Counted from the stretch's first letter, positions 3,538 to 59,350 are shown. The stretch is 64,000 bases of DNA from Bryobacterales bacterium (GCA_026713545.1 JAPOOG010000077.1:37238-101237), one strand, 5' to 3'. Notes: generated by a model not told the origin, from the sequence alone. A program made the numbers and translations.

Positions 3538-3690
3538 CCTGCATTTCTCACCGCGCGGCGAGACGAAGTGCGTGAGAGGGCCGTCAGGACGAGGCGCGAG
3601 CCGGGCGGAGGAAAAAGGCGCGCGCAGGCGTACTTGACAAATCGCCTCTTTCCCCTACCTTGCCACATACACGGTGGTGAGAAATGTAGG
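3538..3690 (+). repeat. R1 inverted-repeat element, copy 1 (variant right half)
   Basis: Left end CCTGCATTTCTCACCGCGCGGCGAGACGAAGTGCGTGAGAGGGCCGTCAGGACGAGGCGCGAGCC. Right end GGTGGTGAGAAATGTAGG. The internal right arm differs from the other copies. Confidence 0.85.
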
Positions 3691-3818
3691 TTAAAGCCCT
3701 CTTGTGCTACAGTTTGCCTTTTGGCGACCGGACCGCTTCCGTGCGACGGTCGCCCGCCGTTGTCACGGTGAGCCGGCCGGGCAAAGGACGCCCGCGTTCC
3801 GTGTTCAATAAACACCCA

Positions 3819-4649
3819 ATGCTCATGAAATGCTTCTCGTTCGAACATGCGCGAAAGAACGTCTCCTGCGTGCTCTTCCTGCTCTGTCTTTGCCTGATTG
3901 CGACACCGATCCTCACCGCGCAACAGCGGGATGACGATGACGACATCAACATGGACCCGGTCTTCGTGCGGCGCTTTTCCGCCGGCGGCAAGTTTCGTTA
4001 CTTGGCGTTGGAGACGATGGCTAAAGGCACACTGAGTACCACCGTCATTGACACGGTCGATGTCGATGCCAGGAGCAGCGGGGACTCATCCCGTTACGGA
4101 TACGGTCTCACTACGCAGGTCGCTGTCACGAATAAATGGGCCTTCGCGCTGGAGCTGCTCAGCAGCAAGATCGAATACAACACCATCCGCGAGGTGACGA
4201 CCTTCATTGTGGATCCTTTCGAGAACGTGCTTCTCGAAACCCAACTGGTCAGCGGAGACGAAACAACGAGTGCCCGCCTGTGGGACATTCCCCTCCTGTT
4301 CCGCTACTACACCAAGAGCCGTTTCAACAGGGGGCCACGCGTCTTCTTCGAAGGCGGAGCGGTCGTTCGGCGCGTCACGGACATCAGCACATCGATCGAG
4401 ACAACAACCTCCACTACGAACCCCAACGTCGAGGATATGACCGATTGCTGCGACAAGGCCCCCGCCCGCGTCGCCAACCCCAACGCCCTCGGCGGCGCGG
4501 TCGGCATCGGTTTTCAGCTTATCGATGACGTCGGTATCCGCGTCGTTCCCGGCTTCCGTTACACACGCTGGTTTTCGAATGCGTTCGACGACCCGCCCAC
4601 CCGTTCAGAGAAGCATCAACTCGAGGTGACCATCGCGCTGACCTTCTGA
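3819..4649 (+). CDS. hypothetical outer-membrane beta-barrel protein
   Basis: Track ORF 3702..4649. Start moved to ATG 3819 (MLMKCFSFEHARKNVSCVLFLLCLCLIATPILTAQQ signal peptide). Alternating hydrophobic strands and the C-terminal ...LEVTIALTF aromatic terminus are typical of OMP barrels. The 5' extension in the track overlaps repeat R1 copy 1. Confidence 0.55.
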   Translation: MLMKCFSFEHARKNVSCVLFLLCLCLIATPILTAQQRDDDDDINMDPVFVRRFSAGGKFRYLALETMAKGTLSTTVIDTVDVDARSSGDSSRYGYGLTTQVAVTNKWAFALELLSSKIEYNTIREVTTFIVDPFENVLLETQLVSGDETTSARLWDIPLLFRYYTKSRFNRGPRVFFEGGAVVRRVTDISTSIETTTSTTNPNVEDMTDCCDKAPARVANPNALGGAVGIGFQLIDDVGIRVVPGFRYTRWFSNAFDDPPTRSEKHQLEVTIALTF

Positions 4650-4853
4650 CTGAAGAAGCTCGATCGCCCCTTTGCGCGTCAGCCGCATTCATCAACTACG
4701 ACGATCTGGCCGGAAGCACCTTCCAGAGCGTGCCCGTTGTCGAATCGCTAGCCCGGCGCCGCAACGAATGGAAGGCTGGTGTTACGAGGTGGGTTTCGGC
4801 ACGGGTCTTGATTCATTCTGACAAGTAATCAGTGGCGCGTATCCTGTGCACCG

Positions 4854-5192
4854 ATGAATATAATCCTCTCCGTCAAGGATGCCGTCGTGGCGCGGGCGCG
4901 AAAGTCGGCCGAGGCCTTGGGCCTGAACCTCCATCAGGCAGTGCGGAATTACCTCAGCGATCTTGCCGGGCATTCGCCGCGCGAGGCCGTCATTGCCGAG
5001 GTGGAGCGTTTGTCAGCTCAAGCGGGCGGCCATCGCGCGGGCTGGCGCTTCTGCGGTCCGTTTGACCGGAAATTGATTCACAGGGTCTCAGTGATTCTGG
5101 GGAGTTTGCCAGGCTGGAACGGGCCCCTGCAAGAAGCCGAGTCCTTCGCTGCAACTGGAACTATTGATCTTCCGGCGCACACCGCAACGTAG
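4854..5192 (+). CDS. ribbon-helix-helix (VapB/CopG-type) antitoxin-like protein, apparently orphan
   Basis: MNIILSVKDAVVARARKSAEALGLNLHQAVRNYLSDLAG has the strand-helix-helix layout of RHH antitoxins. The later ...GGHRAGWRF...DRKLIHR resembles the GW[KR]F-x-R-D-E-L-H-x-R tail that precedes PIN toxin genes. No intact toxin gene follows. Confidence 0.35.
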   Translation: MNIILSVKDAVVARARKSAEALGLNLHQAVRNYLSDLAGHSPREAVIAEVERLSAQAGGHRAGWRFCGPFDRKLIHRVSVILGSLPGWNGPLQEAESFAATGTIDLPAHTAT

Positions 5193-5252
5193 GCTCTTTG
5201 CGTTCTCAGATCTGCTTCGGCCACGGACGTTGGCCGTGCTACCTTAGCATCC

Positions 5253-6743
5253 GTGCAACGGCGTCTCCTCGATACTCGGACCCTCTTTCTCCTTGCGGCG
5301 CTCATTCCGGTAGCCTTTGCAGCGTGCTCGGAAGCCGGCACCAAAGTCATCAGACCCAATATCCTCTTCATCGCCATCGATGACCTCAACGACTGGGTTG
5401 AACCGCTCGGAGGCCATCCGCAGGTGCATACCCCGCATATCAGCCGTTTGGCATCTCGTGGAACCACTTTCACGAACGCCCATACGCAGGCGCCGCTGTG
5501 CAATCCCTCCCGCACAAGCCTCATGCTCGGCTTGAGGCCCTCTACAACCGGCATCTACGGCCTCCGCCCGTGGTTGCGTGACGTCGAAGAACTCAGCGGC
5601 CGCGTCACGCTTCCTCAGCACCTTGGGCAGCACGGCTATCGGACACTCTCAGCCGGCAAGATCTACCATGGCCGCTACGGTCGCGAGGGCGGTGAATTCG
5701 ACGTACTCGGGCCAAGAACCGAAGTCGGCGCGCGCCCTCCTCAAAAACTGGTCACCACGCCACAGAACCACCCGCTCATGGACTGGGGCTTGTTCCCCCA
5801 TCGCGACGAAGATAAAGGCGATTGGAAAGTCGCGCATTGGGCGGTCGAGCAGCTCGAAGGCGGGATGCCCGAACCCTTCTTCCTCTCCGCGGGTTTCTTC
5901 CTGCCCCACGTTCCCTGCTATGCAACGCAGAAGTGGTTTGACCTCTATCCGGAGAGCGGCACGCAGCTTCCACCGATGCGTGCCGACGATCGCGGCGACA
6001 CCCCGCATTTCTCGTGGTTCCTGCACTGGAAGCTCCCCGAGCCCCGCCTGCGGTTCCTTCAGGAGAGCGATCAGTGGACCAATCTCGTCCGCTCCTACCT
6101 GGCCTCGATCAGTTTCGTAGACAGCTTGATCGGCTGGCTTCTCGACACATTGGACGGCAGCCCCTATGCCGACAACACCATCGTCGTCCTCTGGTCGGAC
6201 CACGGCTGGCACCTTGGTGAAAAGCTCATCACCGGAAAGAACACGCTCTGGGACAGGTCCACGCGTGTGCCGCTGATCTTCGCCGGTCCCGGCGTCACGC
6301 AGGGAGTTGTCTCCAACCGCCCCGCCGAGTTGCTGGACATCTACCCAACCCTCACCGAACTCGCCGGATTGCCCCCGAAAGAGGATCTCGAGGGACACAG
6401 CCTCGTCCCGCAACTCAAAGACCCCGAGGCGCCCCGCGAGTGGCCGGCTGTCACGACCCACAACCGGAATAACCACGGGGTTCGCACAGAGGGCTGGCGC
6501 TACATCCGCTACGCCGACGGCAGTGAAGAACTCTATGACATGCGCAACGACCCGAACGAGTGGACCACCCTTGCCGGCGAGCCGGCCCATGCCGCCCGCA
6601 TCGAGGAGCTGCGCAGTTGGCTTCCCTCAAGAAACGTCAAGCCAGCACCCGGAAGCGCCGTCCGTGTTCTCACCTACGAGAACGGCCAGGCCAACTGGGA
6701 AGGCGAGGACATCCTCCCCGGCCAGCCGATCCCCGAGATCTGA
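5253..6743 (+). CDS. sulfatase (type I, Cys-type; iduronate-2-sulfatase-like)
   Basis: Lipoprotein-like signal (LIPVAFAAC). NILFIAIDDLNDW metal-binding start. Formylglycine motif C-N-P-S-R in AHTQAPLCNPSRTSLMLG. WSDHGWHLGEK downstream. Confidence 0.9.
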   Translation: MQRRLLDTRTLFLLAALIPVAFAACSEAGTKVIRPNILFIAIDDLNDWVEPLGGHPQVHTPHISRLASRGTTFTNAHTQAPLCNPSRTSLMLGLRPSTTGIYGLRPWLRDVEELSGRVTLPQHLGQHGYRTLSAGKIYHGRYGREGGEFDVLGPRTEVGARPPQKLVTTPQNHPLMDWGLFPHRDEDKGDWKVAHWAVEQLEGGMPEPFFLSAGFFLPHVPCYATQKWFDLYPESGTQLPPMRADDRGDTPHFSWFLHWKLPEPRLRFLQESDQWTNLVRSYLASISFVDSLIGWLLDTLDGSPYADNTIVVLWSDHGWHLGEKLITGKNTLWDRSTRVPLIFAGPGVTQGVVSNRPAELLDIYPTLTELAGLPPKEDLEGHSLVPQLKDPEAPREWPAVTTHNRNNHGVRTEGWRYIRYADGSEELYDMRNDPNEWTTLAGEPAHAARIEELRSWLPSRNVKPAPGSAVRVLTYENGQANWEGEDILPGQPIPEI

Positions 6744-6761
6744 AACTTCCTCCTGATCAAG

Positions 6762-6937
6762 CCTGCATTTCTCACCACGTGGCGAGACGAAGTGCGTGAG
6801 AGGGCCGTCAGGACGAGACGCGCGCCGCTTGGCGCGCGCAGGTGTACTTGAAAGTACATCGAGCACGGCATGCAAGCGCAACGAAGTCATGGCGGTCGTA
6901 TCGCGTGCTTCGGCCGTCGGGTAGTGAGAAATGCAGG
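6762..6937 (+). repeat. R1 inverted-repeat element, copy 2 (type a, full length)
   Basis: CCTGCATTTCTCACCACGTGGCGAGACGAAGTGCGTGAGAGGGCCGTCAGGACG ... CGAAGTCATGGCGGTCGTATCGCGTGCTTCGGCCGTCGGGTAGTGAGAAATGCAGG. Lies between the convergent sulfatase and FGE genes. Confidence 0.9.
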
Positions 6938-7031
6938 CTCGCGGCTTTGACACCGGACCGCATGTTGCCCGCTTGGATGACTTCGTATGGAGGCGAGGAA
7001 AAACTGGCGGGGCTTCCCAAACGTATCCTGT

Positions 7032-7916
7032 TCAACTCGCATCCCGAACACAGCGAAACCCTACGTTGTTCAGCCCTGAGTCGCGCGCTGTCTTCTGCCG
7101 CGCCGCCACGCGATACCCCTGGCAATAGTTCTCGCTGCACAGCCAGCTTCCACCGCGGTTGATCTTCTCTTGCCCCATCACCGGACCTTTCGGATTCTTG
7201 CGCGGAGACTCACGGTAGTAGGACGATGAATACCAATCCGCGACCCATTCCCAAACATTGCCCGCCATGTCGTAGAGCCCGTAACCGTTCGGAGCGAATC
7301 GCTGTACTGGCGCCGGGCCGCTGAAACCGTCGGTCGCTTGATCTCGGACCGGGAACCGTCCTTGCCAAACGTTCGCCCGGTGCATCCCGCGCGGCCGCAA
7401 TGCATCGCCCCACGGATAGACCGCGCCCTCTCGCCCGCCCCTCGCCGCATACTCCCATTCCGCTTCGGTCGGAAGGCGCTTCCCGGCCCACTCTGCATAG
7501 GCTGTAGCGTCATCCCACGACACATGAATCACCGGATAGTCGTCTTTGCCCTCCAGGTTTGATCCCGGCCCCTCGGGGTGCCGCCAGTCCGCGCCGTCGA
7601 GGAGTTTCCACTGCCCCGTATCGGCATCGAAGAAGCCGGATGATTCTTGCTTCTCTGACTCGGTCTCGTACCCGGTAGCTTCCACAAAGTCCCGAAACTG
7701 GCGGTTCGTCACCTCCGTGACATCCATGTAGAAGCCGTCGACAAACACTCGGTGCTCGGGTCCCTCGAAGGGGAAAGCATCATTGGTTCCCATCGTGAAC
7801 TCGCCGCCGTCGATAAACACCATGCCGGGCTCTTCCGCGGGCGGCTTCGAACTGCAGCCTGCGAAAAGCAGAAGGAGGGTTGTTGTCACGAACAGCACTG
7901 ATCGAAAGCTATGCAA
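7032..7916 (-). CDS. formylglycine-generating enzyme (SUMF1/FGE family)
   Basis: Motifs MVFIDGGEFTMGTN, VTNRQFRDFVEATGY, HVSWDDATAYAEWAGKRLPTEAEWEYAARGG, GLYDMAGNVWEWVADWY and RGGSWLCSENYCQGYRVAARQ. The last carries the paired Cys of aerobic FGE, comparable to the human active-site CxxxxC. Confidence 0.9.
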   Translation of the reverse strand: MHSFRSVLFVTTTLLLLFAGCSSKPPAEEPGMVFIDGGEFTMGTNDAFPFEGPEHRVFVDGFYMDVTEVTNRQFRDFVEATGYETESEKQESSGFFDADTGQWKLLDGADWRHPEGPGSNLEGKDDYPVIHVSWDDATAYAEWAGKRLPTEAEWEYAARGGREGAVYPWGDALRPRGMHRANVWQGRFPVRDQATDGFSGPAPVQRFAPNGYGLYDMAGNVWEWVADWYSSSYYRESPRKNPKGPVMGQEKINRGGSWLCSENYCQGYRVAARQKTARDSGLNNVGFRCVRDAS

Positions 7917-13863: not shown

Positions 13864-16035
13864 ATGAGGAGAGTTACTCTTAATTTAGCGCACTGCTATG
13901 GAATCAAGCAGCTCAAGACAGTACTTGATTTTTCCAGTACTCAGGCTTACGCAATCTATGCACCCAATGGTGTAATGAAGTCATCACTAGCACAAACATT
14001 TCAGGATGCATTCAAAGGAGAGACTTCAATAGATAGAATTTTTTCTCAACGTGTGACTATGCGTTAAATTACAGACGAAAATGGTAAAATAATTGATGGC
14101 GAGCAGGTAATGGTAGTGTTGCCATACGATTCCGAATATGGCCCGACCGAAAAAACGTCTACATTGTTGGTGGACGCCGGACTTCGGAGAGAATATGAAC
14201 GTCTTCACATCAACATCGATGATGCAAAGGCAGCGTTGTTAAAGGCAATTCGTCAAACAGCAAAGACCAGAAAAAGAGACTTTGAAAATGAGATTACGTC
14301 AGCCTTTACTAGCGGAGATGATTTTGAGGTAGCTGTCACGAGAATCAAAGATGAATTAAAAAAGCAAAAGGACATGCCTTTTGCAAATGTTGAATACGAG
14401 ACCATTTTCAATGAAAAGGTACTTAAAGCTTTTGACAACAAGGACCTCAAGAATGCTGTGGAAGACTATATTCGGAGATACAATGAACTGCTCGCAGTGT
14501 CAACATTTTTCAAAAAAGGCACATTTGACTACTACAATGCTGGGCAAATTGCTAGAAGTCTTACAGCGAACGGTTTTTTTAAGGCGCATCATACGGTCAA
14601 TTTGAGAGCTACTGGCAAAATACTAGAAATCGCTACTGCAAAGGAACTGGAAAATATAATCACAGAAGAAAAAAAGGCAATTCTCAATGATGATGTACTT
14701 CGCATGAGGTTCGATGACGTAGCAAAGCAGCTGCAGCGAAATGCCGAACTCAGAAAGTTCTGCTACTACCTTCAAGACAATGAGCCACTTCTATCTAGAA
14801 TGGACAATCTGCCGAAGTTCAAGGAGGATGTTCTCAAATCGTATTTGAAAGCTCATTATAATCTTTATCTCGAATTGATGGGTGAATACGCACATGCTGC
14901 GAGGCGCAAAAAGCAGATCGAAGAAGAAGCCAGAAAGCAGCAAACTCAATGGGAGCAAGTCATCGCTATTTTCAACGATCGCTTCTTTGTTCCTTTCGAG
15001 CTAGAGACGAAAAACCGCATAGCAGTAATGCTTGGTGATGAGCCAATTGTTGAACTTGGCTTTACCTACATAGATGGCGAGGAACGAGTGGGCATAGACA
15101 AGCCCGAACTTTTAAAGGTTCTAAGCACTGGTGAAAAAAAGGCTCTTTACGTTCTCAATGTCATCTTTGAAGTTGAAAGACGGAGCAAAGACGGTGTAGA
15201 AACACTCGTCATCATAGATGATATCGCAGACTCCTTCGACTATCAAAACAAGTACGCAATCATTCAGTATCTTGACGACATTAGTAAAGATGGTCTCTTT
15301 AAGCTCATAATCATGACTCACAATTTTGATTTCTTTCGCACGATAGAGGGAAGGAAAATTGCTGGTTATCGAAATTGTCTAATTGCTTTGAAGGACAAAG
15401 ATGAAATTACTCTTGTTCAGGCGGCAGGTATTAGAAATATCTTTGTGAACGATTGGAAAGAGAACTTTTTTGCTGACTCACGAAAGAAGATTGCGTCAAT
15501 CCCTTTTCTGCGAAACCTGGTCGAAATGACCACCGGTGAAGGCGACGCGAACTATAAACAACTGACGTCCATTCTCCATTGCATGCCCGATTCTAACAAA
15601 ATCACAGTCCGTCATCTGGACTGCATTTTTAATGTGATATGCAACACTGCCGGATCTTCTGATAATCCCTCAACACCGGTGCATGACTTAATTCAGAGTG
15701 AGGCGATTGCTTGCCTATCTAACCAAACGGCATTCAATCTTGAGAACAAAATTGTTCTTGCTATTGCAATACGTCGTGCTGCTGAGCAGTTCATGATTGA
15801 AAAGATTCGAAATGATGCGTTCGTATCAAAGATAGAATCCAATCAAACACAAGTTCTGATTCGAAAGTTTAAAAACCTATTCCCCAAAGAGGCTGAAACG
15901 ATCAAAGTATTGGATAGAGTCGCGCTCATGACTCCAGAAAACATCCACGTTAACTCTTTCATGTACGAGCCTATTGTGGACATGTCCGACGCGCATCTTA
16001 AAAAGCTTTATCAGGACGTCTTGGGACTGGTGTGA
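13864..16035 (+). pseudogene. AAA_13-type (PrrC/RloC-like) ABC/SMC ATPase on an AT-rich island, interrupted by one in-frame TAA at 14065-14067
   Basis: Track ORFs 13864..14067 and 14110..16035 are in the same frame, with a single TAA between them (...QRVTMR*ITDENGKIIDGEQVMVVLPYD...). N-terminus IYAPNGVMKSSLAQTF occupies the Walker A position. A long charged helical insert follows. ABC signature LSTGEKKALYVLNVIF, Walker B TLVIIDDIADSFD, H-loop LIIMTHNFDFF, then about 250 aa of C-terminal domain. Sampled lines are about 30-43% GC versus above 60% in the flanks. Confidence 0.7.
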
Positions 16036-19967: not shown

Positions 19968-20000
19968 GGTTTTCACGAATCACGAGACGCGAGACACGGT
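19968..20000 (+). repeat. module B: CACGRNN heptad array
   Basis: GGTTTTCACGAATCACGAGACGCGAGACACGGTTTTTTT. Units have a 7-nt period. Confidence 0.8.
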
Positions 20001-20016
20001 TTTTTTGTTGCCTCTT

Positions 20017-22938: not shown

Positions 22939-23116
22939 CCTGCTTTTCTCACCACGCGACGAGGCGAAGTGCGTGAGAGGGCCGTCAGGACGGGGCGCGA
23001 GCCGCTTGGCGCGCGCAGGCGTACTTGAACAGTACGTTGAGTACGGCAAGCAAGCGCAACGAAGTCCTGGCGGTCGTATCGCGTGCTTCGCCTCGTCGCG
23101 TGGTGAGAAATGCAGG
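22939..23116 (+). repeat. R1 element, copy 3 (type a; 31-nt perfect terminal inverted repeat)
   Basis: CCTGCTTTTCTCACCACGCGACGAGGCGAAGTGCGTGAGAGGGCCGTCAGGACG ... CTTCGCCTCGTCGCGTGGTGAGAAATGCAGG. The right end directly abuts the TCA (= TGA stop) of the DUF1501 gene at 23117. Confidence 0.9.
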
Positions 23117-27885: not shown

Positions 27886-28062
27886 CCTGCATTTCTCACC
27901 ACGAAGCGAGGTGAAGTGCGTGAGCGGGCCGTCAGGACGAGACGCGCTCAGCTTGGTGCGCGCAGGTGTACTTGACCAGTAGATCGAGCACGGCAAGCGA
28001 GCGCAACGAAGTCATGGCGGTCTTATCGCGTGCTTCGGTCGTCAGGTGGTGAGACATGCAGG
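27886..28062 (+). repeat. R1 element, copy 4 (type a)
   Basis: CCTGCATTTCTCACCACGAAGCGAGGTGAAGTGCGTGAGCGGGCCGTCAGGACG ... CTTCGGTCGTCAGGTGGTGAGACATGCAGG. Overlaps the last 13 codons and the stop of the PAP2 gene. Confidence 0.9.
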
Positions 28063-35453: not shown

Positions 35454-35612
35454 CCTGCATTTCTCACCACGAGGCGAGGCGAAGTGCGTGAGAGGGCCGT
35501 CAGGACGAGCCGCTAGCCACTTGGCCCCAGCAACATGGCCTTTACCGGTTCTCCACACGAATCACGGCCTTTTTCTCGCGTGCTTCGGCTGTCAGGCGGT
35601 GAGCAACGAAGG
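35454..35612 (+). repeat. R1 element, copy 5 (type b, degenerate right terminus)
   Basis: CCTGCATTTCTCACCACGAGGCGAGGCGAAGTGCGTGAGAGGGCCGTCAGGACGAGCCGC ... CACACGAATCACGGCCTTTTTCTCGCGTGCTTCGGCTGTCAGGCGGTGAGCAACGAAGG. Confidence 0.8.
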
Positions 35613-44297: not shown

Positions 44298-44407
44298 CGG
44301 AAGTCCTCGAAACTCACAGGCAGGCCGAGAACATCCTGCCCACCGCCGAGCGGGAAGCCCCTGACGGGGGCTCCGTGGATACCTCCGCTCGTCGTCTTCT
44401 CGGCTGG

Positions 44408-44575
44408 CCTGCATGTCTCACCACGAGGCGAGTTGAAGTGCGTGAGAGGGCCGTCAGGACGAGGCGCGTGCCGCTTGGCGTCGGCAACACGGCTTTTGAG
44501 GTTTCTCACGAATCACGAGACACGAATCACGCCCTTTTTCGCGTGCTTCGGCCGTCGGGTGGTGAGATATGCAGG
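44408..44575 (+). repeat. R1 element, copy 6 (type b, heptad-module core)
   Basis: CCTGCATGTCTCACCACGAGGCGAGTTGAAGTGCGTGAGAGGGCCGTCAGGACG ... TTCTCACGAATCACGAGACACGAATCACGCCC ... GTGCTTCGGCCGTCGGGTGGTGAGATATGCAGG. Confidence 0.9.
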
Positions 44576-44638
44576 CAAGCTCCACGCTATTGCGAGCCGC
44601 CTTGACGCTCGCCTCTCCGGAGGGGTCTACTTGAGGGC

Positions 44639-45871: not shown

Positions 45872-45900
45872 TTGGAGGCGTCGGAGGAGTCGGAGAAAAA

Positions 45901-46947
45901 ATGCTGAAGCGCAGGGTCGGCGGCGAACTCTGGTGCGTCTCGCAGCCCGATCACGCCGCCGCTGCCGGCTACCTGGCCGCTCACTGGGGCAACGGCGAAT
46001 TCACCCGCCCCGGCTGGTACGCTCCCTGTCCCGACCCCGAAAGGCTGCGAGCCGAAACCGTCCTCGCCGTCTCCGAGCACGACAACGGTTGGTGGGAATG
46101 GGAGGCCGACCCCCGGATCGATCCCGCCGACGGCCTTCCCTTGGACCTGACGAGCATCGAGCAGTCCGACGGCCTCCAACGCTGGCGCCTGGGCGTACCC
46201 CGCTTCCGGGAGAGCCATCCTTACGTCGCGCTGCTTATCAGCCTGCATGCCTACTGGCTGCACGCTCCCCGCGTCCAGGCCGAGGATGCGCCCGCGTTCC
46301 TCCACCCGCTCTTCGGAAGCCCTGCTGATTGGCCCTCACCGCAAGGCCGGGAACTCGAAGAAGCCAGGCGGTTCGTTGCCGAACAACACGTCCTGCAGGA
46401 GCTGCTCATCGATCGTATCAGCAGCGATCCCGAATGGGCCGCCGCCATCGAGCCGTGGAGCCTGCGTCCCCACACCCGCCTCCTGCAAGCCTGCGACGCC
46501 CTCTCGCTCCACCTCTGTTTTGGCGGAGACAAGGAGCGAATCATGCACGGCATTCCGCGCGCGAGCTGGAACGATCGAGTCTCGCTCAGCGTCCGGCTGG
46601 CAGGCGAATCCCGAGTAGCCATCGACCCCTACCCCTTCGATCAGGACCCGCTCGCGGTCACCCTCCGAGCCCGCATCCTCAACCTGTATTTCTCACCACG
46701 TGGCGAGGCGAAGTGCGTGAGAGGGCCGTCAGGACGAGGCGCGAGCCGCTTGGCGCGCACAGGCGTACTTGACAGTACGTCGAGCACGGCAAGCAAGCGC
46801 AACGAAGTCCTGGCGGTCGTATCGCCTGCTTCGACCGTCGGGTGGGGAGATATGCAGGTTAACCCGGAGATTCGCGTCCCCGACGACTTCCATGCCTGGT
46901 GGCACGCGCTCCCCCGCCGGGAAATTCGGTTCATATTCACTCGTTGA
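45901..46947 (+). CDS. DUF3891-like protein whose ORF runs through R1 copy 7
   Basis: N-terminal QPDHAAAAGYLAAHWGN...AVSEHDNGWWEWE pattern, recalled as DUF3891. Codons 262-321 (LYFSPRGEAKCVRGPSGRGASRLARTGVLDST...GDMQVN) are encoded by the repeat. 28 further codons follow before TGA at 46945-46947. Confidence 0.55.
   Translation: MLKRRVGGELWCVSQPDHAAAAGYLAAHWGNGEFTRPGWYAPCPDPERLRAETVLAVSEHDNGWWEWEADPRIDPADGLPLDLTSIEQSDGLQRWRLGVPRFRESHPYVALLISLHAYWLHAPRVQAEDAPAFLHPLFGSPADWPSPQGRELEEARRFVAEQHVLQELLIDRISSDPEWAAAIEPWSLRPHTRLLQACDALSLHLCFGGDKERIMHGIPRASWNDRVSLSVRLAGESRVAIDPYPFDQDPLAVTLRARILNLYFSPRGEAKCVRGPSGRGASRLARTGVLDSTSSTASKRNEVLAVVSPASTVGWGDMQVNPEIRVPDDFHAWWHALPRREIRFIFTR
46683..46858 (+). 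repeat. R1 element, copy 7 (type a), located inside the DUF3891-like ORF
   Basis: CCTGTATTTCTCACCACGTGGCGAGGCGAAGTGCGTGAGAGGGCCGTCAGGACG ... CTTCGACCGTCGGGTGGGGAGATATGCAGG. Flanked by AAC(C) at 46681 and 46861, exactly 180 nt apart. Confidence 0.9.
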
Positions 46948-46982
46948 ACGGACAGCGCCGGCCCGACGGCGGCTATCGCTGA

Positions 46983-47151
46983 CCTGCATTCCTCGCCACA
47001 TGGCGAGGCGAAGTGCGTGAGAGGGCCGTCAGGACGAGGTGCGAGCCGCTTGGCGCGCACAACATGGCCTTTAAAGTTTTTCACGAGTCACGAAACACGA
47101 ATCACGGCCTTTTCTCGCGTGCTTCGGCCGTCAGATGGTGAGAAATGCAGG
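46983..47151 (+). repeat. R1 element, copy 8 (type b)
   Basis: CCTGCATTCCTCGCCACATGGCGAGGCGAAGTGCGTGAGAGGGCCGTCAGGACG ... TTTTTCACGAGTCACGAAACACGAATCACGGCC ... GTGCTTCGGCCGTCAGATGGTGAGAAATGCAGG. The right end abuts the TCA (= TGA stop) of pta at 47152. Confidence 0.9.
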
Positions 47152-48114
47152 TCAGGCCTGCAGGGCCGTGATCGCTGCGATGTAGTAGATGTCGTCGGCG
47201 GTGCAGCCGCGAGAGAGGTCGTTGGCGGGCTTCGTCAGCCCCTGGAGAAACGGCCCCAGTGATTTGGCTCCACCGAGCCGTTCGGCGAGCTTGTAGCCGA
47301 TATTGGCGGAATTGAGATCGGGGAAGATCAGCACGTTGGCCCGTCCGGCGACGGGCGAGCCGGGCGCTTTGCGCGCGGCGACACTTTCGACCAGGGCGGC
47401 GTCGGCCTGCAGCTCGCCGTCGATGGTGAGATCAGGGGCCCGCTCGCGGATGATGCGGCAAGCCTCCGCAACCTTCTCGGCCAGCGGATGCCGCGCGCTG
47501 CCCTTGGTCGAGAACGACAGCAACGCCAGGCGGGGCTCGTCGACGAGGAACCGGCGGCTGTTCTCGGCGGTGGCCATGGCGATGTCCGCCAGTTGGGCGG
47601 CGTTGGGCTCGGGCACTACGGCGGCGTCGGCGAAGACCAGCACGCCGCGGCTGCCGTGATGCTGCTCGGGGTGGACCAGAAGCATGAAGCTCGACACGAG
47701 GCGGATGTCCGGCTTCAGCCCCAGGCACCGGATCGCGGCCCGCAGGGTCTCGGCGGTGGTGTTGTTCGCCCCGCCCACCATGCCGTCCACGTCGCCGTTG
47801 GCCAGCATGAGCGATGCGAAATAGAGCGGCCTTCCTGCCGCCTCGTGCGCCTCGGCGCGCCTGACCCCCTTCGCCTTCCTGAGATCGTGGTAAAGCCCGG
47901 CGTAGGCCTCGCGTTTGGGGCTGCGCTCCGAATCCACCCATTCGACCCCGCGCGGCGGGTCCCCGGGGCGGCCCACGACCACGGGCTTGACCACGGCGTC
48001 TCGCGCCAGCCGCTCGGCAGCACGGATCACTCGCTCGTCGTTCCCTTCCGGGAAGACGATGCGCTTGTTGGCAAGCCGTGCTCGAGCGGCCAGATCGTTG
48101 AGGAAGGCTCCCAT
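47152..48114 (-). CDS. pta: phosphate acetyltransferase (PTA_PTB domain only)
   Basis: [36 protein letters not shown]...[45 protein letters not shown]. Start moved to ATG 48114. Confidence 0.85.
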
Positions 48115-48163
48115 GACTGATTTCGGCCCGGACGGAAACAGCCGCCGGACAAGTCCGGCGCGC

Positions 48164-48922
48164 TTACTGCGCGATCCAGCCGCCGTCGATGACGATGTCG
48201 GTCCCGGTGATGAACCCGGCTTCCTCCGAGCACAGGTACACGGCCAGTGAACCGACCTCCTCGACCTTGCCCCAACGCCCCGCCGGAATCCGCGAAAGGA
48301 ACTGAGCATTGCGCTCGGGGTCGTCGAGGATGGGCTGGTTCATCTCGGTGGCGAACGGCCCGGGACTGATGCCGTTGGCGGTTATGTTGTAGGGCGCCAG
48401 TTCCAGGGCAAGCGCCTTCGTCATGCCGAGCAGGCCGGCCTTCGTCGCGCTGTAGCCGGTGCGCAACGGTATCGACACGTGCGACATGATCGACGTCAGG
48501 TTGATGATGCGGCCCCAGCGTTTCTCCTTCATCCCGGGTACGAGCTCGCGGCACATCAGGAACGGCGCGGTCAGGTTGATGCCGACAATCTCGTTCCACT
48601 CCTCCGTCGTGAACTCATCCACGGCCTTGCGGTTGTTGATGCCGGCGTTGTTGATCAGGATGTCGCAAGTCCCCAGCCGTTGCGAGACGTGCTCCGCGGC
48701 ATCGGCGACAGCGGCAACGTCGCTGACATCCGCCACGATCGCTTCGGCCTTGCCGCCGCCCGTACTGATGCCCGCCGCGACTTCATCCAGGAGACTCTTG
48801 CTGCGTGCGACGAGGGCGACGGACGCCCCGGCGGACGCCAGCGACTCCGCGATCTGTCGGCCCAGGCCCTTGCTGGCGCCGGTGACCACGGCGACATGCC
48901 CTTCGAGAGACGCTGCCCTCAC
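48164..48922 (-). CDS. SDR-family oxidoreductase (FabG-like)
   Basis: [56 protein letters not shown]. Confidence 0.85.
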
Positions 48923-51437: not shown

Positions 51438-51639
51438 GGTCTGCTTTTCTCGCCAAGCGGCGAGGCGAAGTACGTGAGAGGGCCGTCAGGACGAGGCGCG
51501 AGCGCCCGTGCCGGCGACACGGCTTTTCCCGTTCACCCCCGTCCGACATTCCTTCTGGAGCGAACAAAGCCCCCGCCAATGGTTTTCACGAATCACGAGT
51601 CACGAATCACGGCTTTTACGCTTTTCACGAATCACGGCC
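51438..51639 (+). repeat. composite repeat: R1 left half (copy 9) + module E + heptad module B
   Basis: GGTCTGCTTTTCTCGCCAAGCGGCGAGGCGAAGTACGTGAGAGGGCCGTCAGGACGAGGCGCGAGC, then CTTCTGGAGCGAACAAAGCCCCCGCCAATGG (also found at 53712), then TTTTCACGAATCACGAGTCACGAATCACGGCTTTTACGCTTTTCACGAATCACGGCC. Confidence 0.85.
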
Positions 51640-53643: not shown

Positions 53644-53783
53644 CCCGAACCATCCACCTGACCAGGCGGTGTTGACGCCAACCCGGATGTTTCCCGCTTG
53701 TATGATCCGCTCTTCTGGAGCGAACAAGCCCCCGCCAATGGTTTTCACGAATCACGAAACACGAGACACGAATCACGGCCTTT
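53641..53783 (+). repeat. module D copy 3 + module E + heptad module B (begins on the TGA of the preceding gene)
   Basis: TGACCCGAACCATCCACCTGACCAGGCGGTGTTGACGCCAACCCGGATGTTTCCCGCTTGTATGATCCGCTCTTCTGGAGCGAACAAGCCCCCGCCAATGGTTTTCACGAATCACGAAACACGAGACACGAATCACGGCC. Confidence 0.85.
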
Positions 53784-55137: not shown

Positions 55138-58100
55138 ATGGAAGGAAAAGCACTAAGGAAACTGCCGCTGTTGTTGGCGGCGGTTCTTCTCGTAGCGGGA
55201 TTGCTGGCCCCGAATCTCAGCGGCCAGGCGATCACGCAGACCATTCAGGGTCTGGTGACGGACGCCACCGGCGCCGTGATTCCGGGCGCATCGGTTACTC
55301 TTACGAACCGCGATACGGGTGTAACCAGCACCATCCAGACGAACGAAACGGGAAACTATTCGTTCCCGCAAGTACCGGTCGGCAACTACGACCTTTCCTG
55401 TCAGCTGGAAGGTTTCAAGACCGACAGCGTCACGAACCAGCGCGTGGAAACGGGCGCCCAGGTTCGTATCGACTTATCTCTCGAAATCGGTGACGTGACG
55501 GAGACGGTGGAAGTGTCCGCCGCCGCCATCACCCTGAACACCGAGAATGCCGTCGTTGGCGGCGTGGTCGAGAACAAGCGCGTGACCGAGTTGCCGCTCA
55601 ACGGCCGCAACATCGTGCAGCTCGCCGTCATGGTGCCGGGCGTGCAGTACGGCCAGCGCACCGGCATGAACGACGGTCAGGGCGGGTTCCCGATTCCGGG
55701 CGCCGGCTACTCCGTCAGCGCCAACGGGCAGCGTGAGATTCACCAGGTGGTCTCGCTTGACGGCGTGGACGCCAAGGATCCCCGCATCCACATCACGAAC
55801 TTCGTGCCTTCGATCGAGGCGATCGAGGAGTTCAAGATCCAGACCAACGCCTATTCGGCCGAAGTCGGGTTCGGCGGCGGAGCCGTGACGTCGATCACCA
55901 TGAAGAGCGGCACCAACGAGTTTCACGGTACGTTGTTCGAGTTCCTTCGCAACGAAGCTCTCGACGCCGAGCACTACTTCTTGAACTTCGAGTTGGCGGC
56001 GGGCGAAGCGCGCCGTCCCAAGCAGCAGCTCCGGCGCAACCAGTACGGCGCGGTCTTGAGCGGCCCGATCGTCAAGAACAAGACCTTCTGGGCGTTCAAC
56101 TGGGAGGGCCGCCGCGAGCGGACTTCCTCCGTGCAGAGCGCCTGGTTCCCGGACTCCACCTTCAAGAGCGGCGACTACTCGCGTTTCGCGATGCCGACGC
56201 CCCGTTCCGCCGGTGGTTTTCGGGACCCCATCATCCTCTACGACGTCTACACCGGCGAGCCGTTCATGAACAACGTGATTCCGGCTTCCAGGCTCCATCC
56301 GGGCTCGCAAACCACGATGAGCGAGCTTCTTCCCGCCCCCTGCTTCCAGCAGCAGGACCCGCTCGATTTCACCTGCCGCGACAACATCGTGCAGCCGATC
56401 AACCTCGACCAGTACTACGGCCGAGTCGATCACCATTTCAGCGACAAGGACCGCATCTTCGGCCGTTACCAGCTTGCTTCGGGTGAGCGGGCGCTGAACA
56501 ACATCAACCCCAAGAGGGCGCGGATCGACTCGAACGACGTCTATAACCTGGCGTCGCAGTGGATCCATACCTTCAACCAGAATGCGATCAACGAGTTCCG
56601 GTTCGGGTTCAACCTCGCCGGTACCAATCCCTTCCACTACTTCACCAACACGGATTTCGACTCCGATAGCCTCGGCATCGGCCTGATCCGGGTGGCGGGC
56701 GACAACAACCGCAAGCTGACTCCCCTCGAGACGGGGCCGCCGCATATCAGCGGCGCGCGCTTTCCGTGGTCGGTCAACGGCAACCTCAACCAGTTGGATA
56801 CCTACCAGTTCAGCGACCACCTGTCCATCATTCGAGGCAGTCACAACCTGAAGGTCGGCGGTGAGTACTACTACATAACCATGGACCGCGCCGCGGCCAA
56901 CTTGCCGACGGGCCGTTACACGTTCAACGCGGCTCAAAGCGGTGACGGGTTTGCCTCGTTCCTGCTGGGGCTGCCTTCCCGGACGGAAACAGCGGAAGGC
57001 TGGCCGCGCACCGTGCCGCGGGCCGGCCGCCAGGCCTACTACGTCAACGACGACTGGAAAGCCACGTCGAAGTTGACCTTGAACCTGGGCTTGCGGCTCG
57101 AGTACGTCGGCAACTCCCAGGATGCTCTCGGCCTGCAGCGGGTCGTCGCCTTCCCGGGTGAGCCGTACAACCGCGGTCCGTACTTCACGGATCCGGAAAC
57201 CGGACAGCAGATCCCGACCTTCTTCCCCGAGCCGGTCAACGTACCGGAAGGCAAGGTCAACCTGTGGCAGCAGCAGGGCGTGTTCTACCAGCCGCGTCTT
57301 GGCGTCGCCTACCGTCCGGCGGAAGGTTGGGTGGTCCGCGTCGGCGGAGGCTACTTCAGCAACATCGACCACATGAATACCTGGACGATCCTGAACCTGA
57401 ATCCGCCGCTGTCGGGCTCGAACAACTTCGAGGCCGTCACCGACGCTTCCGGCTCCATTACCGTCGATGGCGCAAGCGGGCCGGTCAACCGGACGTTGCG
57501 CATGTTCCGTCCCGGCAACCCGATCATCACGTTGAACGACCCCTTCCTTCAGGAAGTGGGAGCCGCCGCATCGCCGCGCAACATCAACACCTTGACGACG
57601 CCCTCCGATCAGAAGACGGGCAACGTGGTGAAGTGGAGCTTCGACATCCAGAGGGAACTGCCCTTCGAGACGTCCTTGACGGTCGGCTATGTCGGCAGCA
57701 AGGGGTCCCACGCGGGCAACAGCGTCAGAAACTACAACAGTCCTCTGCCTTCTCCGGATAACAACATTCAGAGAAACCGGCCCTGGCGGCGCGTGTACGA
57801 TCCGGCGACGCCGGAGTTGGGCGTGCAGAGCCTGGCGGTGATCCGCTATCTGGACAGCTTCGCGAACACCTTCCATCACGGTCTGCAGATGAAGCTGGAC
57901 AAGCGCTACTCCAATGGGCTGGCGTTCGGTGTGGCTTACACCTTCAGCAAGTCGCACGGCGACGGAGAGAACGGCGGCCAGCAGGGCGCCCAGTTCCAGA
58001 ACCCGCGCAACTGCCTGACCTGCGACCGCGGTCGCTTCCGGTTCGACCAGCGGCACAACCTCGTCAGCCACTTCGTGTGGGAAATGCCGGGACAGAACCT

Positions 58101-58617
58101 CTCGGGGCCGTTGAAGCACATCATCGGCGGCTGGCAGTCGAACGGCATCCTGTCGCTGCGTTCGGGCTTCCCGTTCACCGTCGTGAACCCCAGGGGCGAC
58201 CTGAATGTTTCCGACTCCAATATCCGCCCGGACCGGCTTGCCGACGGAGCGCTCTCCAATGCCACGAGAAAGCTGTGGTATGACCCGACGGCGTTCCAGA
58301 GGGTGACCTGCGATGTCCCGGAACTGGTGGCCGACCGCTGCCACTTCGGCGACGCCGGTTACAACATCCTCGATTCGCCGGGGCAGGTGAACCTGGACTT
58401 CGGACTCTTCAAGAACTTCCCGATCACCGAGAACGTGAGGCTCCAGTTCCGCTGGGAGCTGTTCAACGCCACGAACACCCCGTACTTCGGCGCTCCGGGG
58501 GGCATCTCGTTCTCCAACACCAATCAGCTCGTGCCCGACGGCTCGCGCAACGGTGAGATCCGGAGTATCCGGACGCCCATGAGGATTCAGCAATTCGCGC
58601 TGAAGCTCTTCTTCTAG
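55138..58617 (+). CDS. TonB-dependent receptor with carboxypeptidase-regulatory-like domain (paralog 1)
   Basis: Signal peptide. GLVTDATGAVIPGASVTLTNRDTGVTSTIQTNETGNYSFPQVPVGNYDLSCQLEGFKT, plug-like LNGRNIVQLAVMVPGV...VSLDGVDAKD, and the C-terminal ...IQQFALKLFF. Confidence 0.85.
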   Translation: MEGKALRKLPLLLAAVLLVAGLLAPNLSGQAITQTIQGLVTDATGAVIPGASVTLTNRDTGVTSTIQTNETGNYSFPQVPVGNYDLSCQLEGFKTDSVTNQRVETGAQVRIDLSLEIGDVTETVEVSAAAITLNTENAVVGGVVENKRVTELPLNGRNIVQLAVMVPGVQYGQRTGMNDGQGGFPIPGAGYSVSANGQREIHQVVSLDGVDAKDPRIHITNFVPSIEAIEEFKIQTNAYSAEVGFGGGAVTSITMKSGTNEFHGTLFEFLRNEALDAEHYFLNFELAAGEARRPKQQLRRNQYGAVLSGPIVKNKTFWAFNWEGRRERTSSVQSAWFPDSTFKSGDYSRFAMPTPRSAGGFRDPIILYDVYTGEPFMNNVIPASRLHPGSQTTMSELLPAPCFQQQDPLDFTCRDNIVQPINLDQYYGRVDHHFSDKDRIFGRYQLASGERALNNINPKRARIDSNDVYNLASQWIHTFNQNAINEFRFGFNLAGTNPFHYFTNTDFDSDSLGIGLIRVAGDNNRKLTPLETGPPHISGARFPWSVNGNLNQLDTYQFSDHLSIIRGSHNLKVGGEYYYITMDRAAANLPTGRYTFNAAQSGDGFASFLLGLPSRTETAEGWPRTVPRAGRQAYYVNDDWKATSKLTLNLGLRLEYVGNSQDALGLQRVVAFPGEPYNRGPYFTDPETGQQIPTFFPEPVNVPEGKVNLWQQQGVFYQPRLGVAYRPAEGWVVRVGGGYFSNIDHMNTWTILNLNPPLSGSNNFEAVTDASGSITVDGASGPVNRTLRMFRPGNPIITLNDPFLQEVGAAASPRNINTLTTPSDQKTGNVVKWSFDIQRELPFETSLTVGYVGSKGSHAGNSVRNYNSPLPSPDNNIQRNRPWRRVYDPATPELGVQSLAVIRYLDSFANTFHHGLQMKLDKRYSNGLAFGVAYTFSKSHGDGENGGQQGAQFQNPRNCLTCDRGRFRFDQRHNLVSHFVWEMPGQNLSGPLKHIIGGWQSNGILSLRSGFPFTVVNPRGDLNVSDSNIRPDRLADGALSNATRKLWYDPTAFQRVTCDVPELVADRCHFGDAGYNILDSPGQVNLDFGLFKNFPITENVRLQFRWELFNATNTPYFGAPGGISFSNTNQLVPDGSRNGEIRSIRTPMRIQQFALKLFF

Positions 58618-58748: not shown

Positions 58749-58812
58749 GCTTTTCACGAATCACGAGACACGAATCACGGCTTTTATCTTTTTCGCGAAT
58801 CACGTTTTTTTG
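58749..58812 (+). repeat. module B heptad array
   Basis: GCTTTTCACGAATCACGAGACACGAATCACGGCTTTTATCTTTTTCGCGAATCACGTTTTTTTG. Confidence 0.85.
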
Positions 58813-58821
58813 TAGCCTGAA

Positions 58822-58848
58822 GGTACTGAAGCCCTTCAGTCTTGTTTT
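58822..58848 (+). repeat. module A hairpin plus T-tract, copy 3
   Basis: GGTACTGAAGCCCTTCAGTCTTGTTTT. Confidence 0.8.
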
Positions 58849-58861
58849 GCCTCCCCGGCCG

Positions 58862-58999
58862 GCCTAGCATGAGGTCAGCGAGGCGAAAATCCTGCCGCGT
58901 GGCAAGGCAAAGTGCATGAGAGGGCCGGCAGGACGAGGCGCAAGCCGCCCGCGCCGGCGACACCGCCTGTAAGCCTTTTTACGAATCACGGCCTTTACC
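58862..58999 (+). repeat. degenerate R1-related segment (copy 10) ending in a heptad unit
   Basis: ...CTAGCATGAGGTCAGCGAGGCGAAAATCCTGCCGCGTGGCAAGGCAAAGTGCATGAGAGGGCCGGCAGGACGAGGCGCAAGCCGCC ... CTTTTTACGAATCACGGCC. Confidence 0.65.
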
Positions 59000-59070
59000 G
59001 CCGTTCGGTTCGTCGCGTGTGCGAATGGTTCACAAGACAAAACCCACCGCCCGGAACGCCGTACCCGCCG

Positions 59071-59200
59071 ACAAGTCACTGCTTCCCTGCCCACCATTTC
59101 CCACTATTTCCCGGCATTTCCCGGTAAATAAATTGCCCTTGAGCCAGTGTCCGAGCACCGTCAGCCGTTCTCGGTCTGCTTCACGACGAGCGCCGTTCGC
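59071..59200 (+). repeat. module C copy 3 (10-bp phased array plus AT-box plus conserved tail)
   Basis: AAGTCACTGCTTCCCTGC CCACCATTTC CCACTATTTC CCGGCATTTC CCGGTAAATAAATTGCCCTTGAGCCAGTG ... CGTCAGCCGTTCTCGGTCTGCTTCACGACGAGCGCCGTTCGCC. Confidence 0.85.
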
Positions 59201-59350
59201 CTGTATATCTCACCAAGTGGCAAGGCGAAGTCTATCCGGGTCACGAGACACGAACCACGAAATGCTGCCTTCCCCCATTGATCACGGCAAGCCAGCGCAA
59301 CGAAGTCATGGCGGTCTGATCGTGTGCTGCGGCTATCGCGACATGATTCC
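59200..59350 (+). repeat. R1 element, copy 11 (degenerate)
   Basis: CCTGTATATCTCACCAAGTGGCAAGGCGAAGT ... CACGGCAAGCCAGCGCAACGAAGTCATGGCGGTCTGATCGTGTGCTGCGG ... The right terminus is eroded. Confidence 0.65.

Follow-up and report, generated by a model that had tools for sequence, protein, structure and literature searches.

The window, by which we mean the whole 64-kb stretch of DNA that was analysed, carries repeated copies of an element here referred to as R1. An nhmmer profile built from the four type-a copies found 11 non-overlapping copies in the window, eight of them long and three truncated or degenerate, and all 11 lie on the + strand (Table 1). The same 11 copies, with terminal inverted repeats (TIRs) and an asymmetric core, had been described in an earlier reading made without database searches (the sequence-only reading), and a direct search bears them out: allowing up to two mismatches, CCTGCATTTCTCACCAC has 15 matches in the window where chance would give 0.01, and the pairs fall where that reading had placed the copies. 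The 49-nt asymmetric core, with up to three mismatches, was matched four times (expected, 0), on the + strand only. The alignment contains three long variants: type a; type b, in which a heptad module of the CACGAAT type replaces the centre; and the copy at 3538. Copies in the window are 153–178 bp long and the consensus is about 177 bp. The three truncated or degenerate copies of the earlier grouping were recovered by both alignment and nhmmer. Two details were amended. The truncated copy placed at 58862 is real, but nhmmer puts its start nearer 58891. The copy at 22939–23116, whose arms of 53 nt are complementary at 85%, had been credited with a perfect palindromic terminus of 31 nt; 30 of the 31 positions agree, and position 6 differs (CCTGCT on the left versus CCTGCA on the right).

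Table 1. Copies of R1 in the 64-kb window, with the evidence for each.
Feature	Position	Strand	nhmmer	Other evidence	Flanks
R1, normal left arm and core, other right half	3538..3690	+	3534-3641, E=1.7e-22	TIR matches, alignment	CTAA / TTAA
R1 type a, full-length	6762..6937	+	6758-6941, 209 bits	TIR, core, alignment	
R1 type a, full-length	22939..23116	+	22935-23120	TIR, core, alignment	
R1 type a, full-length	27886..28062	+	27882-28066	TIR, alignment, filled-versus-empty comparison	
R1 type b, heptad-module centre, degenerate right TIR	35454..35612	+	35453-35614	TIR, alignment	
R1 type b	44408..44575	+	44407-44579	TIR, alignment	
R1 type a	46683..46858	+	46679-46862	TIR, core, alignment, fold	
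R1 type b	46983..47151	+	46982-47154	TIR, core, alignment	
R1 truncated, left arm and core only	51439..51503	+	model positions 5-69, E=3.6e-14	alignment	
R1 degenerate fragment, left arm and core	58891..58948	+	model positions 15-72, E=5e-7	alignment	
R1 degenerate, both arms recognisable	59199..59341	+	model positions 5-167, E=1e-16	alignment	

As for the neighbours of these copies, the one at 6762 starts 19 nt past the stop of a sulfatase gene (5253–6743; Pfam), and the stop codon of a DUF1501 gene (23117–24649, - strand; Pfam) adjoins the right end of the copy at 22939. The copy at 44408 has ndk (43875–44297) on one side and a gene at 44639–45871 on the other. The stop codon of a phosphate acetyltransferase gene (47152–48309, - strand) adjoins the right end of the copy at 46983, and a heptad-array module follows the truncated copy at 51439.

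R1 contains no conserved ORF; its only frames arise by chance or by read-through from adjacent genes. For example, the copy at 46683 sits at the 3' end of a DUF3891 gene, whose ORF (45901–46947) reads through the element to 46947, while its DUF3891 domain stops at residue 261, precisely where the element starts. The recurring pseudo-peptides that had been ascribed to R1 are genuine read-throughs. The earlier remark that no transposase was in sight also holds for the window: Pfam or NCBIfam scans of 34 window ORFs (30 of them against Pfam) assigned none to a transposase family, and tblastn with the IS1380 and IS110 transposases found elsewhere gave no match there.

We further analyzed the ends of R1 in 133 full-length copies. 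The TIRs are 17 nt long, the terminal pairs are kept across these copies, and the consensus with its flanks reads CTAG/CCTGCA...TGCAGG/CTAG. The YTAR target of R1 is present on both sides as a direct 4-bp duplication, a feature absent from the sequence-only reading. The order of preference is CTAG, TTAG, TTAA and CTAA, with 36 copies flanked by CTAG/CTAG, 14 by TTAG/TTAG, seven by TTAA/TTAA and three by CTAA/CTAA. Because the pairs TTAG/TTAG and CTAA/CTAA are not palindromic, they show that the duplication is direct and not inverted. The copy at 27886 departs from this rule, since the CCAG on its left side reverse-complements the target CTGG instead of repeating it directly.

The profile was then run on related loci together with the window, and 312 copies were found in 860 kb. 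The sample consists of the window and 102 loci drawn from four Bryobacterales MAGs and from two short contigs whose bins belong to other phyla. R1 reaches a copy number of at least a hundred in sponge-associated Bryobacterales genomes. Identity to the consensus is about 94%, and near neighbours are no more similar than distant copies, which is consistent with spread from one or few sources. Three syntenic pairs of sites, with flank identity of 93–96%, are filled in one genome and empty in another. First, the site of the window copy at 27886, the sole well-resolved filled/empty pair within the window, lacks R1 in locus L009; at the orthologous site of OZ242366.1 the empty sequence reads GTC-CTGG-CTC. 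Second, the window is empty at 29012–29022, where L009 has one R1 nested in another. Third, the window is empty near 660, where L086 has a type-b copy. Together with the target duplications, these empty sites show that R1 copies arrive by transposition.

A candidate partner was found in sister genomes. An insertion sequence (IS) of 1.74 kb is present in OZ241991.1 (L074, L100) and in L001, with the ends CTAG/CCCGCATTTCTCACCAG ... CTGGTGAGATTTCCGGG/CTAG and a single ORF encoding a 487-aa transposase. This protein matches Pfam DDE_Tnp_1_4 (PF13701) at 2e-147 (491 bits; curated cut-off 34.7) and the NCBIfam model "IS1380 family transposase" (NF033539) at 4e-117 (391.5 bits; curated cut-off 180). 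The IS end agrees with that of R1 at 15 of 17 positions, and the CTAG duplication is the same. Metagenomic relatives of the transposase share 56–67% amino-acid identity with it, and more than 60 metagenomic relatives of the IS have ends CCCG[C/G]ATTTCTCACC.. spaced about 1.70–1.77 kb apart, with YTAR on either side; several of them read CCCGCATTTCTCACCAC, identical to R1 at 16 of 17 positions. The similarity of R1 to the IS is confined to the terminal ~17 nt, and further inward the two align no better than shuffled sequence does, so R1 is no simple internal-deletion derivative of the IS. The sequence-only reading had stated that an autonomous IS with the same termini would make these copies ordinary MITE derivatives. 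Such an IS exists in the sister genomes, and the novelty that had been implied for R1 was overstated.

The TIRs, the 4-bp duplication, the lack of coding capacity, the copy number and the insertion polymorphism support the MITE-like character proposed earlier. What is shown here comprises the ends, the duplication, the copy number, the polymorphism and the existence of an IS whose ends and target match those of R1. On these grounds we consider it very probable (about 0.9) that R1 is a non-coding MITE of about 177 bp, devoid of a transposase and moved in trans by an IS1380-family DDE transposase with near-identical 17-nt ends. Since the window has no transposase gene, we infer from the sister genomes that such trans-mobilisation takes place in the source genome, that the transposase of the partner IS, or a close relative, is the actual mover, and that the window's own genome has, or formerly had, a copy of the IS. 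In this scheme, the IS1380-family transposase would bind both TIRs and put R1 into a YTAR tetranucleotide, preferably CTAG, whose 4 bp would become duplicated. At 62% G+C, YTAR is rare within genes, and it includes the stops TAG and TAA; hence copies would land between genes, often precisely on a stop codon. After insertion, copies would decay neutrally, their centres may become swapped, nested or expanded, and they may act as landing pads for other mobile elements.

The partner IS resembles members of the IS1380 family (IS1380, IS1247, ISEcp1) in its length of about 1.74 kb, its single ORF, its ends starting with CC and its short target duplication. For comparison, IS1247 is 1672 bp long with an IR of 16/13 and a DR of 5 (PMC3281130). 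R1 has the end sequence and the YTAR duplication of the partner IS clade; however, it is about 177 bp long, lacks a transposase and shares only the terminal ~17 nt with the IS, and the two arms of R1 are able to pair along about 80 nt, which the ends of the IS are not. No published MITE attributed to IS1380 was found in the literature searched. R1 shares with bacterial MITEs a size of 100–300 bp, TIRs, a short duplication, a whole-element hairpin, an intergenic place, a modular or mosaic interior and high copy number, as well as mobilisation in trans by an autonomous relative, which for R1 is the putative step. These features are common to Correia/CREE of Neisseria, ERIC/IRU of enterobacteria, RUP of pneumococcus and the Tn3-related TIMEs. 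Those four families probably have other sequences, and they have other hosts and other transposase families, the host of R1 being an uncultured sponge-associated Bryobacterales; the duplication is TA in Correia and 5 bp in TIMEs, compared with the 4-bp YTAR of R1. Correia, ERIC, RUP and RPE (Rickettsia) also differ from R1 in hosts and ends, and the likeness is in kind only; Correia and RPE, which the sequence-only reading had named, are probably unrelated to R1 in sequence. Eukaryotic piggyBac elements duplicate 4 bp on insertion and use TTAA as their target. R1 and the IS clade share this duplication length, and their YTAR targets include TTAA, but R1 prefers CTAG and has a bacterial host. 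For piggyBac, IS1380 transposases serve as the prokaryotic outgroup (PMC10813416).

The hairpin formed by R1 brings up a different explanation, namely that R1 is mainly a structured RNA (for example, one that stabilises transcripts, offers a site to RNase III or is a small RNA in its own right) whose top-strand hairpin is selected and whose spread is secondary. As RNA, the top strand of the copy at 46683 folds at -101 kcal/mol (z = -7.9) and the bottom strand at -72.5 (z = -3.3), and the top strand is the more stable in all 133 copies. In addition, nine positions of the hairpin are fixed as G·U (G·T) wobbles and none as an A·C mismatch, and double-sided pair changes occupy 72 cells versus 12.7 in shuffles. 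However, the strand asymmetry is equally present with DNA energy parameters, and it could have come from C-to-T changes that favoured one strand of the source copy; together, the wobble pattern and the top-strand stability are hints of strand-specific selection or mutation in that copy. The excess of double changes could come from subfamilies rather than independent events. One-sided substitutions break the standard pair (445) slightly more often than they keep it (367), and breakage is about as frequent as chance would give, so there is little selection on the hairpin and individual copies look neutral. The orientation of R1 is unrelated to the direction of flanking genes (71, 58, 52 and 49 in the upstream/downstream classes). 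Rfam 15 gave no match across the whole window at the gathering score, with Acido-1 and Acido-Lenti-1 among the families searched, and at E<=10 nothing overlaps R1 in region 44300–47300. As the duplications and empty sites also show arrival by transposition, we regard a primary RNA role as improbable.

As a MITE, R1 is ordinary in kind, save for the near-constant same-way orientation of neighbouring copies. Among adjacent high-scoring pairs less than 8 kb apart, 63 of 67 are co-oriented, and clusters are uniformly oriented, the densest being L052 with eight copies in 8 kb. A symmetric-ended DDE element offers no obvious reason for this, and to our knowledge near-uniform local orientation has not been described for the Correia, ERIC, RUP or TIME families. 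Orientation could be set if R1 were of the REP/BIME-RAYT or IS200/IS605 PATE kind, a single-strand-DNA element moved by a Y1/HUH transposase at replication-fork hairpins. The strand-asymmetric hairpin, the strong local co-orientation and a slight excess of pyrimidines on the R1-top strand of the flanks (purine skew -0.011, p = 0.002, with negative values at 65% of loci) would agree with this, but R1 has true TIRs and a direct 4-bp duplication, and Y1 elements, as far as we know, have neither. Moreover, the orientation blocks switch at least 17 times per complete chromosome instead of twice, and orientation does not track replication direction as estimated from GC3 skew (-0.018, with a bootstrap interval of -0.041 to +0.006). 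In the loci sampled, the autonomous element that matches R1 belongs to the DDE-type IS1380 family, and we consider a single-strand mechanism very improbable.

We give almost no credence to R1 copies being attC-like sites in integron cassette arrays that have become dispersed (CALINs), where recombination of the folded bottom strand by a tyrosine recombinase would set their orientation: R1 is an imperfect palindrome of roughly attC-like size with uniform orientation inside clusters, but its ends are CCTGCA.../...TGCAGG with YTAR flanks and lack the core sites RYYYAAC ... GTTRRRY, the 4-bp duplication is individual to each copy, several ordinary genes on either strand, rather than single-gene cassettes, occupy the intervals, the copies are scattered across whole chromosomes, and an IS with the ends of R1 exists.

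The earlier comparison with REP/BIME does not extend to membership. REP/BIME elements are small imperfect palindromes of 20–40 nt, associated with RAYT (Y1) proteins and without target duplication; R1, at about 177 bp, is far larger, has the 4-bp duplication and is matched by a DDE IS. The two are alike in serving as landing pads. REPs are specific targets for some IS110 members such as IS621, and R1 is likewise a specific target of an IS110-family element, with 10 of 10 copies seen at one position at the R1 apex.

R1, the inverted-repeat element of about 177 bp, is a real and abundant MITE family belonging to an IS1380 clade. In the window, its terminal repeat CCTGCATTTCTCACCAC has 15 matches at no more than 2 mismatches, against a chance expectation of 0.01, and these matches to the terminal 17-mer pair left with right at the ends of the copies delimited by the earlier sequence-only reading. 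The asymmetric 49-nt core described in that reading has 4 matches, every one on the + strand, where 0 are expected. An nhmmer profile built on four type-a copies recovers 11 non-overlapping copies in the 64-kb window, the number counted before, on the + strand only. Alignment of the eight long copies likewise bears out three variants (copies are named by their start coordinate): type a; type b, with CACGAAT-type heptads in place of the usual centre; and copy 3538, whose right half is unlike that of the other copies. The "31-nt perfect palindrome" ascribed to copy 22939 needs a small correction, to 30/31.

The consensus of 133 full-length copies begins with CCTGCATTTCTCACCAC and ends with GTGGTGAGAAATGCAGG, with CTAG on either side. 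Among these 133 copies the flanks are CTAG/CTAG in 36, TTAG/TTAG in 14, TTAA/TTAA in 7 and CTAA/CTAA in 3. On the two sides of R1 the tetranucleotide is directly duplicated and does not simply extend the palindrome: the non-palindromic flank pairs match directly, and therefore the target of R1 is YTAR with a 4-bp duplication. An inverted duplication of the flanks, at which two window copies hinted, was ruled out on the 133 copies, across which the direct-repeat pattern prevails. The reverse-complement flanks of these two copies (Table) look like compensatory changes lengthening the hairpin. R1 folds whole, as a single long imperfect hairpin, and the RNA fold of copy 46683 reaches -101 kcal/mol (z = -7.9).

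Long R1-bounded units were searched for by pairing matches to left-half and right-half profiles. A 1.75-kb repeat in OZ241991.1 (loci L074 and L100, 97% identical) is the autonomous partner IS. Its ends read CCCGCATTTCTCACCAG and CTGGTGAGATTTCCGGG; the better one is identical to the R1 repeat at 15/17 positions, with CTAG on both sides, as in R1. The partner IS has a single ORF of 487 aa, which matches Pfam DDE_Tnp_1_4 (2e-147) and, in NCBIfam, 'IS1380 family transposase' (4e-117), in each case far above the curated cut-off. A third copy, with 88% amino-acid identity, lies on a short contig binned as Gammaproteobacteria and adjoins R1 via a shared CTAG. Scanning metagenomes with the partner transposase returned 590 relatives, the best 80 of which are 56–67% identical; more than 60 of these 80 have ends CCCG[C/G]ATTTCTCACC at a spacing of 1.70–1.77 kb, each end bordered by YTAR, and in several relatives the ends read CCCGCATTTCTCACCAC, which agrees with the R1 repeat at 16/17 positions. 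Since the ends and YTAR are common to these relatives, the ends and target of R1 are the signature of a whole IS1380 clade. The similarity of R1 to the IS ends with the terminal repeat; descent of R1 from the partner IS by deletion was ruled out, as the resemblance stops past the TIR. Judged from this comparison, R1 has taken over the ends of the IS without being a simple deletion derivative of it.

Two further kinds of R1-bounded unit were rejected as the parent: stretches of 1.2–1.4 kb (loci L013 and L008) are without a transposase ORF and hold heptad-array repeats only, and in five 1.6-kb units the insert encodes an IS110-family transposase. In agreement with the sequence-only reading, no transposase of either the IS1380 or the IS110 kind was found in the window; an autonomous IS with R1 termini, which that reading had raised as a source of ordinary MITE derivatives, exists in sister genomes. 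In the literature that could be searched, no description of the family or of any IS1380-derived MITE was found, and to that extent R1 is previously undescribed. With R1, the IS1380 family, prokaryotic relatives of piggyBac, gains a high-copy MITE.

Outside the window, an exact-match search with the 27-nt R1 core, using one genome per species, found at least 102 stretches. Among the matches listed, nearly all come from four Bryobacterales MAGs, namely the three complete chromosomes OZ241991.1, OZ242366.1 and OZ244625.1 and the short-read MAG RHO3_bin_12. Also among these matches are two short contigs: JAPOWV010000036.1 (L001, 2.3 kb), binned as Gammaproteobacteria and carrying R1 with an IS1380 element, and JAAXGO010000265.1 (L035, 1.2 kb), binned as Rhodothermales and carrying R1. 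Both hold nearly nothing besides these repeats, and may be mis-binned Bryobacterales DNA, the alternative being inter-phylum transfer. By profile, at least 312 copies are present in the 860 kb sampled (window plus loci), with a maximum of 8 per 8-kb block, and at least 128 lie on one complete chromosome (39 sampled 8-kb blocks). Identity of full-length copies to their own consensus is about 94%, and neighbours resemble each other no more than distant copies do (similarity 0.904 vs 0.917), a pattern that fits a burst from a single source copy or a small number of them.

Stretches of the window are syntenic with loci of three of these genomes at 93–96% identity. Copy 27886-28062 is absent from the orthologous OZ242366.1 site, which reads GTC-CTGG-CTC where the filled window site reads GTC-CCAG-[R1]-CTGG-CCTC. 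At the same OZ242366.1 locus, R1 is nested in R1 where the window, at 29012-29022, is empty; RHO3_bin_12 has a type-b copy with TTAA flanks at a position that is empty in the window near 660. These differences between filled and empty sites speak for mobility of R1. Nesting of R1 in R1, or abutment with R1 or IS1380 via a shared CTAG, is always in the same orientation (loci in the Table, also L099, L052 and L062), and a unit made of the left 60 nt of R1, CTAG and a full R1 recurs in at least 4 loci.

Selection on the hairpin in individual copies was considered and rejected, since among one-sided substitutions 367 leave a standard pair intact and 445 disrupt it. Double-sided pair changes are in excess (72 cells vs 12.7 in column shuffles), behind which subfamily inheritance could lie. 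A described RNA family, another identity left open by the sequence-only reading, came out negative: Rfam gave no match at gathering score across the window, and at E<=10 an R1-rich stretch of 3 kb yielded nothing of relevance. Membership in REP/BIME, to which R1 had been likened, is excluded by its size, its duplication and its DDE partner. Integron attC sites were dismissed because the core sites are missing and the intervals between R1 copies are multi-gene and on both strands. The consensus hairpin has a G·T wobble fixed at 9 positions and a fixed A·C mismatch at none, and the top strand is the better folder in 133/133 copies with RNA and DNA parameters alike. This strand asymmetry could come from selection on a single-stranded form, or from C-to-T change that favoured one strand of the source copy.

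R1 is also an example of a MITE acting as a dedicated landing site for an IS110-family element. This 1.44-kb element matches the NCBIfam model 'IS110 family RNA-guided transposase' (3.5e-100). Its 10 copies in the loci sampled from OZ242366.1 all sit at one position of the R1 apex, between ACTT and GAAC, and the five fully covered ones point the same way with respect to R1. Five inserts show 100% identity among themselves but are flanked by differing R1 halves, and therefore the IS110-family element is younger than R1 and targets it. Within the 3' non-coding part of the element, GGCGTACTTATG repeats the junction between target and left end and may belong to a guide (bridge) RNA; Rfam gave no match in this 3' part.

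R1 copies are locally co-oriented. In 63 of 67 adjacent high-scoring pairs less than 8 kb apart the orientation is the same, and it is uniform in 71 of the 80 loci having at least two copies. The same-orientation fraction is 100% below 500 bp, 92% at 0.5–8 kb, 83% at 8–30 kb and about 40–47% at 30–300 kb, so that coherence fades over roughly 10–30 kb, with many block switches along each complete chromosome. Moreover, non-orthologous insertions agree in orientation within syntenic regions of different genomes. Three causes were tried, none with support in the data. Local hopping from neighbours finds no support in the similarity of neighbours (0.904 vs 0.917 for distant copies), a comparison with little power after a burst of near-identical copies. 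Replication direction gives a GC3-skew component of -0.018 (bootstrap interval -0.041 to +0.006), about 0 in the two large chromosomes, and a two-replichore pattern is absent from the per-locus skew. Direction of the flanking genes, with crude gene calls made in this analysis, gives four classes of 71, 58, 52 and 49. The flanking DNA is only weakly enriched in pyrimidines on the R1-top strand (p ~0.002). We consider it rather unlikely, at about one chance in five, that a regional factor rather than chance sets the orientation of R1 and its IS1380-type partner. The DDE transposase may read the orientation of a resident copy, e.g. via synapsis within a supercoiled domain, or may instead respond to some strand-specific DNA state, and the strand-asymmetric hairpin could belong to the mechanism. 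Co-orientation is the one feature of R1 that could reveal something new on how DDE transposases choose orientation. At one place on OZ241991.1, near 3.86 Mb (locus L083), a '-' block changes cleanly to a '+' block within 2.7 kb; this interval spans one gene, and neither an IS nor a tRNA nor any other scar is visible in it.

YTAR contains TAG and TAA, and therefore directs R1 copies often to stop codons: 40 of 174 full-length copies adjoin the stop of a called gene. The ends of the DUF1501 and phosphate acetyltransferase genes coincide with copies 22939 and 46983, respectively. In the DUF3891 ORF, the domain extends to residue 261, where copy 46683 starts; the ORF runs about 87 codons further, through this copy, its own gene end being lost. 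The recurrent "pseudo-peptides" noted earlier are explained in this way. R1 accounts for much of the ORF-polluting sequence, repetitive and hairpin-forming, that is found in the genomes of sponge-associated Bryobacterales; it can be masked in annotation, spurious C-terminal extensions such as that of the DUF3891 gene can be recognised, and breaks in short-read MAG assemblies are easier to account for.

Coordinates of R1-related and other features in the window and in sampled loci (L numbers) of related genomes
Feature	Location	Strand	Source
Truncated R1	window 51439-51503	+	nhmmer
Truncated R1	window 58891-58948	+	nhmmer
Truncated R1	window 59199-59341	+	nhmmer
Reverse-complement flanks CCAG/CTGG	window 27882-27885, 28063-28066		
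Reverse-complement flanks CTGA/TCAG	window 46979-46982, 47152-47155		
Nested or abutting R1	L009:5107-5478		OZ242366.1
Nested or abutting R1	L001:116-355		JAPOWV010000036.1
R1 before orientation switch	L083:3907-4090	-	OZ241991.1
R1 after orientation switch	L083:6759-6941	+	OZ241991.1
R1 + IS110-family insert	L058:2508-4132		OZ242366.1
R1 + IS110-family insert	L058:4843-6467		OZ242366.1
R1 + IS110-family insert	L048:4241-5865		OZ242366.1
R1 + IS110-family insert	L012:6301-7924		OZ242366.1
R1 + IS110-family insert	L051:2228-3841		OZ242366.1
DUF3891 ORF	window 45901-46947	+	
Heptad array	window 19974-20229		
Heptad array	window 51587-51637		
Heptad array	window 53746-53778		
Heptad array	window 58755-58780		
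Heptads inside type-b R1	window 35556		
Heptads inside type-b R1	window 44507-44532		
Heptads inside type-b R1	window 47082-47107		
Heptads inside type-b R1	window 59242-59260		
Low-G+C island	window 14110-16035	+	

A second repeat consists of (CACGAWW)n heptad arrays, with 26 matches in the window vs 0.9 expected; all but one of the 26 are on the + strand. The arrays have their own conserved upstream module, TTCTGGAGCGAACAAGCCCCCGCCAATGGTTTT, and the heptad repeat forms the centre both of type-b R1 and of the 1.2–1.4-kb R1-bounded stretches. They are oriented as R1, many being located inside long R1 derivatives, and by the crude gene calls, of the 17 arrays that are not close to R1, 13 precede a gene of the same orientation, which they lie upstream of. 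The low-G+C island (41% vs about 62%) carries a 641-aa ORF, for which Pfam gave no match; against PDC-S46, a PADLOC model for candidate anti-phage defence, the ORF scores 1.5e-223, and it has a weak RecF/AriA-like ATPase stretch. Finally, window 1964-3268, 5253-6743, 7032-7916, 35910-37217, 30708-33806 and 55138-58617 have a gene content typical of sponge symbionts, including ankyrin-repeat and HEAT-repeat proteins, a sulfatase with an FGE-type maturase and large TonB-type outer-membrane barrels, in keeping with the sponge-derived names that the related MAGs bear.
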